From the IMG/VR virus record IMGVR_UViG_648276650_000007, positions 1 to 25,804 of that record: DNA of 25,804 nucleotides; one strand, written 5' to 3'. This stretch comes from a virus (Duplodnaviria > Heunggongvirae > Uroviricota > Caudoviricetes). The notes below the pieces were generated by a model. It made no database searches. It saw only the letters and a program-made list of their open reading frames with translations, and was not told where the DNA came from. Positions within the stretch are counted from its first letter, which is position 1. Every line of letters begins with the position of its first letter. The translations under genes were made by a program, and so were the position numbers. Shown here in pieces: positions 917 to 2,445 of this stretch.

Positions 917-2445
917 TATGCAGCCCTCACAATATAATTAAAGGCAATGTTACGTGGGCGGTTCTCATTTGCGGTTGGGACAACGGCTGAAGCATTAAAA
1001 TTCGCATACAGGGAGCGTTGATACCCGGATGCTGATGCACCACTTAATGCGGGAGCTTTTGACTCCGAAGCCGAAAAGGCCCCTGACACGTATCCTAATA
1101 ACCCTTGTGAATCGCCAATTGAACTGTAGCCAACCACCCCGGTAATGTTTCGGATAGCATCTCCTTGTGCTGAAAGCAGAGTTCGCCCACTATCCACTCC
1201 CTTTCCACCATCCCAGCCACGAATAAACTCACCGCGTAAATCAGGCAATTTTAACGTCGGGTAAGCCTTTGCCAGATTAGGGTAATCTTCAGCAGAAAAA
1301 GCCGCACCGTTGCATTTCAGCCAGCCTGTTGGCGGTGTGGCTGAAGGCCATGGAACAGGCACACCAACAGGCAGCGCAGAGCCTTCCCCTAAACCAAGGT
1401 ATGCGAGAAGACTAGCAACATCCTTTCCACTCAAATGAGTCAGCGTATTGTCCAGCGGTTGTTTACCTGCCAGTGCATTAAGCATTGTCGTGGCAAAGTT
1501 CGGGTCATTCCCCAGCGCCGCCGCCAGTTCGTTCAGTGTATCCAGTGCCGCAGGTGCAGAACCCACCATTGCCGCAATCGCCGATTTCACAAATGCCGTG
1601 GTGGCAATCTGTGTATTGTTGACCGACTGTGCCGCAGTCGGTGCGGTTGGCGTTCCGGTGAGTGCCGGACTCGACAGCGGCGCTTTCAGTGCCAGCGCAT
1701 TGTTAATGGTGGTACTGAATTTCGGATCATTGTTAATGGCTACGGCTATTTCTTTCAGCGTGTCCAGCGTGGCTGGCGCATCATTAATAAGAGCCGTCAG
1801 TGCCGCCTGAACAAATGCGGTGGTCGCAACCTGCGTGGTGTTATTCCCCGTCGCTGGCGTTGGCGCTTTGGGTGTCCCGGTAAACGTAGGACTTTCTTTG
1901 GCTGCATACTGTGAATGCGGGTCCGGTGCGGCAAGATGTTTTGCCATCTGATCATCCGCGTACACCTTCAGCTCCAGTGCCTTGTCATCCACATACTTGC
2001 GGGTTGCCAGCACTACAGCAGGGTCGATTTTCAGGGTGATATTGTCCGTGCTGCTGGTAATCAGCACCATGCGCACGGTCTGGGTACGCCCGCTGCCTTC
2101 AGCCAGTTGCGGCTTATAGCTTTCCGGGCAGTTGCCCACGGCAATCAATGCCCCTGACTCATCAAACAGGCCCACTTCACGTATCCACCAACCGCCCTCG
2201 TTTTCAGGGATCACCTGTTCAGCAATAATCTGGCTGCTGTTCTGTGGGTCGATATAGAGCATATTCAGCGCAGCCCGACGTTTCTCATTTACCAGTGCAC
2301 TCTGCTTTGCGTCCGGCGTCGGCAATGTTCCGCCACCATCGCCCACCGCCATATGGGTAATTTTTAGCGGCACACCGAGCGCGGCGGCGCTGACAAGTTT
2401 CGCCGCGCCAATATCCGTCAGCAGGGTATAAAATTTTGTGCTCAT
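916..2445 (-). CDS. H: tail fibre protein (P2 H-like N-terminus, tail-collar-type C-terminal region)
   Basis: 509 aa. N-terminus [17 protein letters not shown]...MAVGDGGG resembles P2 gpH as I recall it. C-terminal part carries a tail-collar-like motif ([32 protein letters not shown]). Follows baseplate gene I with no gap. Confidence 0.9.
   Translation of the reverse strand: [509 protein letters not shown]
1384..1409. other. candidate hix/gix-like DNA-invertase crossover site inside the tail-fibre gene
   Basis: Sequence TTCCCCTAAACCAAGGTATGCGAGAA matches the remembered gix/hix consensus (TTCCTGTAAACC-GA-GGTTTTGGATAA) at about 18 of 24 half-site positions, with the AACC-AA-GG core. It falls at H codons ~346-354 (LLAYLGLGE), at the junction of the P2-like and divergent parts of H. 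Confidence 0.4.
1456..1887 (-). repeat. internal tandem duplication (~70 codons x2) inside the tail-fibre gene
   Basis: Protein segments [71 protein letters not shown] and [71 protein letters not shown] are clearly homologous. The antisense ORF 1448..1810 shows the same periodicity. Confidence 0.6.

Follow-up and report, generated by a model that had tools for sequence, protein, structure and literature searches.

The DNA analysed here, called the window throughout, is a stretch of 25,804 nucleotides. Over its full length it is collinear with a prophage on the Escherichia coli 2021CK-01361 chromosome (NZ_CP107720.1), with 25,802 of 25,804 bases identical and two mismatches. The prophage is of the P2/186-like type and is integrated between ybjL and rcdA; the window opens within its tail-fibre region and runs as far as the stop codon of the integrase gene. 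Window 1-2500, which holds the features under study, is 100% identical in three complete E. coli chromosomes. From left to right this part of the window contains:

1..342, plus strand: 3′ part (last 113 codons; 147 aa in full) of a silent alternative assembly gene (Caudo_TAP, 1.5e-32; full-length gene at L001 8899-9342)
314..916, minus strand: tail-fibre assembly gene, 200 aa, partner of the collar cassette (Caudo_TAP, 1.4e-32; annotated as tfaE or tail fiber assembly protein)
916..1396, minus strand: variable C-terminal cassette of H that is now expressed, tail-collar type, about 155 aa after GLGE (Pfam Collar; inside the invertible segment)
1384..1409, no strand assigned: crossover site at the H junction, distal to the invertase gene (TTCCCCTAAACC inside the segment, core AA at 1396-1397, GGTATGCGAGAA on the constant side)
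1397..2445, minus strand: constant N-terminal part of H, about aa 1-350 (Phage_tail_fib; similarity to P2 H; collinear in flipped relatives)

The tail-fibre gene and the 26-bp site

The H protein (509 aa, window 916-2445, minus strand) starts with a Phage_tail_fib domain and carries a Pfam Collar domain at residues 361-408. A BLASTP comparison with the H protein of P2 (NC_001895) gave 50% identity, the similarity ending at residue 354 within the sequence ...LGLGE. The site had been placed at the junction of the constant and the variable part of H by the initial annotation, and this position is borne out by the end of the P2 similarity at residue 354 and the start of the Collar domain at residue 361. 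The assembly gene at 314-916 is co-oriented with H, downstream of it and within the segment. The silent assembly gene, also within the segment, has its start 102 nt to the left of the window; the two genes converge and overlap by 29 nt. Both open reading frames match Caudo_TAP, in agreement with the earlier view that convergent assembly genes are present.

The sequence TTCCCCTAAACCAAGGTATGCGAGAA is found at window 1384-1409 on the plus strand. When both strands were searched with up to three mismatches this was its single occurrence in the window, a second copy being absent from either strand, and shuffled sequences gave 0 matches. It is made up of two imperfect 12-bp inverted half-sites flanking a 2-bp core, TTCCCCTAAACC AA GGTATGCGAGAA. 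From 22 halves we derived the family half-site consensus TTCTCC(C/T)AAACC, to which the two halves of the window site conform at 11/12 and 10/12 positions, neither being perfect. For the comparison of whole sites, reference cix and gix sequences were taken from the annotated records of P1, which marks cixL, cixR and the crossover points, and of Mu, which marks the boundaries of the G segment. P1 cixR (TTCTCTTAAACC AA GGTATTGGATAA) agrees with the window site at 21 of 26 positions and Mu gix (TTCCTGTAAACC GA GGTTTTGGATAA) at 19 of 26, and the window site is the best cix/gix match on both strands of the whole 25.8 kb. None of 1000 mononucleotide shuffles reached 21/26, the maximum being 20; in a smaller earlier run 21 was attained in 1 of 30 shuffles. 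The resemblance to the sites of the Din family (Gin, Cin, Pin, Hin) noted in the initial annotation is thereby confirmed, and we conclude that window 1384-1409 is a genuine crossover site of a Gin/Cin-type DNA invertase. Read on the coding (minus) strand the site is TTCTCGCATACC TT GGTTTAGGGGAA and encodes LLAYLGLGE, residues 346-354 of H.

The partner site and the invertase gene

Neither a pattern search with 3 mismatches nor an inverted-repeat search of window 1-3000 revealed a partner site in the window. In the source genome an inverted partner, TTTTCTTAAACGTTGGTTTGGGAGAA, is found some 420-450 bp left of the first window base (L006 1153-1178, equal to L001 8554-8579), where it reads TTTTCTTAAACG TT GGTTTGGGAGAA. 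It matches the reverse complement of the window site at 19 of 26 positions with a longest perfect run of 7 bp, and its core is AA in the sense of the window site, the two central dinucleotides being identical. The centres of the two sites are 1830-1831 bp apart, which gives a segment of 1.83 kb. The inverted copy upstream that the initial annotation had proposed to search for is thus present, with the same core, 1.83 kb away and beside an intact invertase gene. Both the partner and the invertase gene were invisible to the earlier reader because the window begins inside the segment.

Leftward from window base 1 follow the 102 nt of the assembly gene, a promoterless Gp53-like_C cassette, the partner site and the invertase gene. 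The segment comprises two promoterless tips for the tail fibre, an assembly gene accompanying each, and the two units point at each other. As for the partner, its outer half, TTTTCTTAAACG, is non-coding and falls in the stretch that separates the invertase gene from the silent cassette.

Window base 1 falls 102 nt into the silent assembly gene and so inside the invertible segment. A start at this position is what one would expect if mixed orientations in the sequenced population had broken a contig, and the switch may cause contigs or windows to break off or begin within the segment.

The silent gp53-like cassette is intact in 2021CK-01361 and CAVP776. In ECONIH4 only, a 1-bp deletion in a G run (L001 ~8795, about 205 bp left of window base 1) shifts its reading frame; it may be a sequencing error in the homopolymer or else a genuine inactivation of one fibre variant. 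A dead switch, first suggested by this frameshift, was rejected as an explanation since the deletion is absent from the two other identical prophages.

The invertase gene (L001 7932-8498, minus strand) starts 55 bp beyond the partner site and is transcribed away from the segment. It is intact and codes for a protein of 188 aa with Resolvase and HTH_7 domains, which is annotated in identical form in four strains (WP_000905032.1). Aligned over residues 1-184, the protein matches the Mu Gin structure 3uj3 (E=1e-92), and Ser9 and the motifs around it are conserved; it also matches the Hin DNA-binding domain (E=1.9e-9). Identity amounts to 78% with Cin, 75% with Gin and 80-82% with the invertases that two P2-like prophages of EPEC encode.

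In the P1 record the enhancer is annotated at nt 19-90 of cin. Between this stretch and its homologue here 56 of 72 bases are identical, compared with 69% gene-wide. Among seven invertase genes the synonymous-codon identity is raised over codons 1-48; at conserved residues it is 0.57 in codons 7-30 versus 0.38 in codons 31-135, and it is greater in the 5′ region in 18 of 21 gene pairs, a difference to which constraints on translation initiation could contribute. A scan for Fis-like G-N13-C 15-mers returned one at nt 71 conserved in 3/3 genes and one at nt 22 conserved in 2/3, a pair which at a distance of 49 nt is unconvincing. If the mechanism of Gin and Hin applies, a Fis-bound enhancer may lie in this 5′ part of the gene. 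Scanning for promoters and terminators near the invertase gene and the segment yielded no more hits than shuffled sequences did.

In the RefSeq records examined the invertase is labelled only 'recombinase family protein', the crossover sites are unmarked and the silent cassette appears as an odd short open reading frame, and the main value of the finding is in annotation.

Elsewhere in the prophage, window 13758-15985 (minus strand) contains three abutting co-oriented open reading frames of 371, 148 and 221 aa. They had no match in Pfam, NCBIfam or PADLOC, and a PDB sequence search with the 371-aa frame likewise gave none; they match only PHROGs of unknown function. Of 50,697 phage records, only that of Klebsiella phage KP12 contains them at the DNA level, with 66% identity. 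They are situated between the portal gene and replication gene A, that is at the old/tin position, a known defence hotspot of P2-like phages, and are a candidate uncharacterised cargo or defence operon. The same hotspot contains an intact gene for a DUF6694 lipoprotein of 292 aa (window 16612-17490, plus strand). In ECONIH4, whose prophage is otherwise identical, an IS1 lies within this gene, and the window therefore does not derive from ECONIH4.

Orientation of the segment and possible explanations

The inverted configuration was built in silico by exchange at the central dinucleotides. Both fusions of H are in frame through ...LGLGE, the window orientation giving the 509-aa protein with the collar tip and the flipped one a protein of 460 aa ending in the gp53-like C-terminal domain. 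The latter is, judged by eye, about 97% identical to the 460-aa H annotated in strain MS10860. With a 700-bp query spanning the predicted flipped junction, uninterrupted matches were obtained in 11 complete E. coli genomes at up to 98.6% identity. Junctions of the window type were counted in 98 complete E. coli genomes versus 11 for the flipped type, a comparison that is confounded by cassette diversity.

MS10860 has the segment flipped, between flanks that share 99.6% and 98.1% identity with the prophage studied here. Collinearity extends up to L001 8580 and resumes from L001 10383, the interior being reversed, and the breakpoints therefore lie inside both 26-bp sites. In the flipped relative L002 the collar cassette is inverted and adjoins the invertase gene. 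Furthermore, the H-side site of strain 95-3322 and of phage pro483 reads TTCTCCCAAACC AA GGTATGCGAGAA, exactly the predicted hybrid of the inner half of the partner and the outer half of the window site. The three genomes identical across the segment all have the same orientation. According to the initial annotation bases 1 to about 1396 are the inside of an invertible segment, and the right breakpoint in the comparison with L002, window 1383-1400, agrees with this. Observation of a single orientation would have spoken against that reading; both orientations are found among closely related prophages.

Inversion of such segments has been demonstrated experimentally. Goldberg et al. (2014) sequenced clonal cultures with paired-end reads, in which they identified phase-variable inversions, and verified these by PCR (PMC4272514). 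In EPEC E2348/69 they list two inverting loci in P2-like prophages, at 2977580-2979467 and 1891695/1892127-1893703 (PMC4272514 Table S1). Our identity scan placed two 26-bp sites centred on the published endpoints of the former locus; at the latter one centre coincides with an endpoint and the other two are within about 8 bp. The invertase-proximal site at 2977580-2979467 is identical to the partner site here (26/26), and the H-junction site at 1891695/1892127-1893703 (TTCCCCCAAACC AA GGTAATCAAGAA) agrees with the window site at 22/26 positions. The e14 repeat of the same table (AAACCTTGGTTTGGGAGAAGG) is one base off the inner half of the partner. These homologous sites lend experimental weight to the earlier reading that the segment inverts. 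A 2024 preprint on hotspots of P2-like phages also describes a DNA invertase at the same locus with adjacent genes inverted, and layout and sites as here are found in Fels-2, pro483 and 500465-1.

The second EPEC prophage (NC_011601.1 1891683-1893708, L009) has three crossover-type sites sharing the half-site TTCCCCCAAACC. These three sites fit the four-variant, shufflon-like switching reported there, while the prophage in the window has only two.

One might suppose that the DNA at the site is kept only for the fibre peptide LGLGE, or that its likeness to crossover sites is due to chance. The site is indeed within coding sequence and GLGE is common to both cassette fusions, but the outer half of the partner, TTTTCTTAAACG, resembles a half-site in spite of being non-coding, and the inversion breakpoints that emerge when genomes are compared coincide with the two sites, which effectively refutes coding constraint; as to chance, 0 of 1000 shuffles attained the observed score. 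We regard these explanations as practically negligible. No more credit is due to the idea that the inversion between genomes was made by RecA-dependent homologous recombination between the inverted repeats and not by the invertase. Inverted repeats can recombine in this way, and in one EPEC prophage they reach 215 bp at 92% identity (PMC4272514). The repeats here, however, are 26 bp long with 19 matches, and a dedicated invertase gene is found 55 bp away. A perfect run of 7 bp is far below the requirement of RecA, and since the repeats share at most seven consecutive bases homologous recombination is implausible.

A further explanation would be that the window site is a true Din-type descendant in which the switch has died, leaving the fibre locked in the collar form. 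Against this, the invertase frame is intact (WP_000905032.1 in four strains), the partner is intact with an identical core, and in the source-type genome none of the two cassettes and two assembly genes is disrupted; moreover close relatives are flipped with breakpoints in the sites, and the EPEC site identical at 26/26 positions has been shown to be active. That fossil sites exist is suggested by P2 H, which has a gix-like sequence (23/26) without an invertase, and the single orientation of the three identical prophages as well as the 1-bp deletion in the silent cassette of ECONIH4 would fit a dead switch. On balance we consider it very improbable.

Taken together, we are highly confident that the window site is one of two Gin/Cin/Pin-type sites bounding a 1.83-kb tail-fibre switch of this P2/186-like prophage. 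Its mechanism can be outlined from homology to Hin and Gin (PMC3798978) and from established knowledge. A dimer of the invertase would bind each 26-bp site, and the two dimers would synapse with a Fis-bound enhancer, whose presumed location is the 5′ part of the invertase gene, to form an invertasome. Ser9 would then cleave the central AA/TT on both strands, the cuts being staggered by 2 nt, and half of the tetramer would rotate by 180 degrees before the ends are rejoined. Religation requires identical cores, and the two sites here have them. As the crossover would occur within the codons for the shared ...LGLGE, either cassette would continue the reading frame of the constant part of H, with a fibre product of 509 aa in the window orientation and 460 aa after inversion. 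A population of lysogens would then release particles of two receptor specificities.

We infer that the segment also inverts in this particular strain. By analogy with the related systems the switch would be Fis-dependent, and the unrelated C-terminal domains, Collar versus Gp53-like_C, point to a probable effect on host range. Such a switch would serve a temperate phage as bet-hedging of its host range and is relevant for predicting the host range of prophages; it accounts for the alternative C-termini of H among near-identical prophages.

Several related invertible fibre segments are often present in one E. coli genome: with the junction queries, matches were obtained at up to 6, 7 and 10 places in a genome, and at 4-5 in ECONIH4. 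It is conceivable, if rather unlikely, that the invertase and the sites belong to a cross-talking network in which one invertase drives or biases the switching of several prophages; on this reading the atypical inner half-site TTCCCCTAAACC might give a strongly skewed ratio of the two orientations. Cross-complementation among Din invertases is known in principle, and such a network would therefore add little.

Comparison with known systems

A host-range switch in the tail fibre of a P2-like prophage is a known kind of system and not new in principle; the arrangement has been described previously, and near-identical sites have already been shown to invert experimentally. The Hin/hix system of Salmonella shares with the present one the invertase subfamily and the architecture of the 26-bp site, and it works with a Fis-bound enhancer (PMC3798978). 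In contrast to the locus here, Hin flips a promoter instead of coding cassettes, and hin is located inside the segment.

The C segment of P1 has the same AA core, and cixR, which matches the window site at 21/26 positions, is also found at a constant/variable junction (Sc/Sv). Cin is 78% identical to the invertase, and the enhancer annotated in the 5′ part of cin has 56 of 72 bases in common with the stretch here. The two differ in that cin is transcribed toward the segment, cixL overlaps the 3′ end of cin and the segment is 4.2 kb long.

In the G segment of Mu the alternative tips S and S′ with the assembly genes U and U′ are arranged in converging units as here, and the sites are 26 bp long. 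The gin gene, too, is just outside the segment and transcribed away from it, its product being 75% identical. On the other hand, Mu has GA as its core instead of AA, the segment measures 3 kb versus 1.8 kb, the phage is a transposable myovirus and not P2-like, and the cassettes are without sequence homology.

Salmonella phage Fels-2 is P2-like and has the same layout, and the constant-side half of its site, GGTATGTGAGAA, is one base off GGTATGCGAGAA. It differs in its GA core, in the invertase gene (about 72% DNA identity) and in that its silent copy of H is annotated as a probable pseudogene. P2 itself is without an invertase; its H gene (NC_001895 13857-13882, minus strand; L012 1124-1149) includes the sequence TTCCTGTAAACCGAGATATTCGATAA, which matches Mu gix at 23/26 positions. 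Situated just past the end of the similarity to the H gene studied here, TTCCTGTAAACCGAGATATTCGATAA looks like a relic crossover site.

Closest are the segments in P2-like prophages of E. coli (EPEC E2348/69) together with those of the phages pro483, 500465-1, Cartapus and Klebsiella KP12, which occupy the same position between H and the sheath gene FI and have the same layout, with invertases that are 80-99% identical and H-junction sites that agree at 22-24 of 26 positions. The content of the cassettes differs in detail, and of the EPEC prophages one has three sites, its counterpart being a truncated remnant. In place of the commoner TTCTCCCAAACC, the prophage here has TTCCCCTAAACC as its inner half-site.
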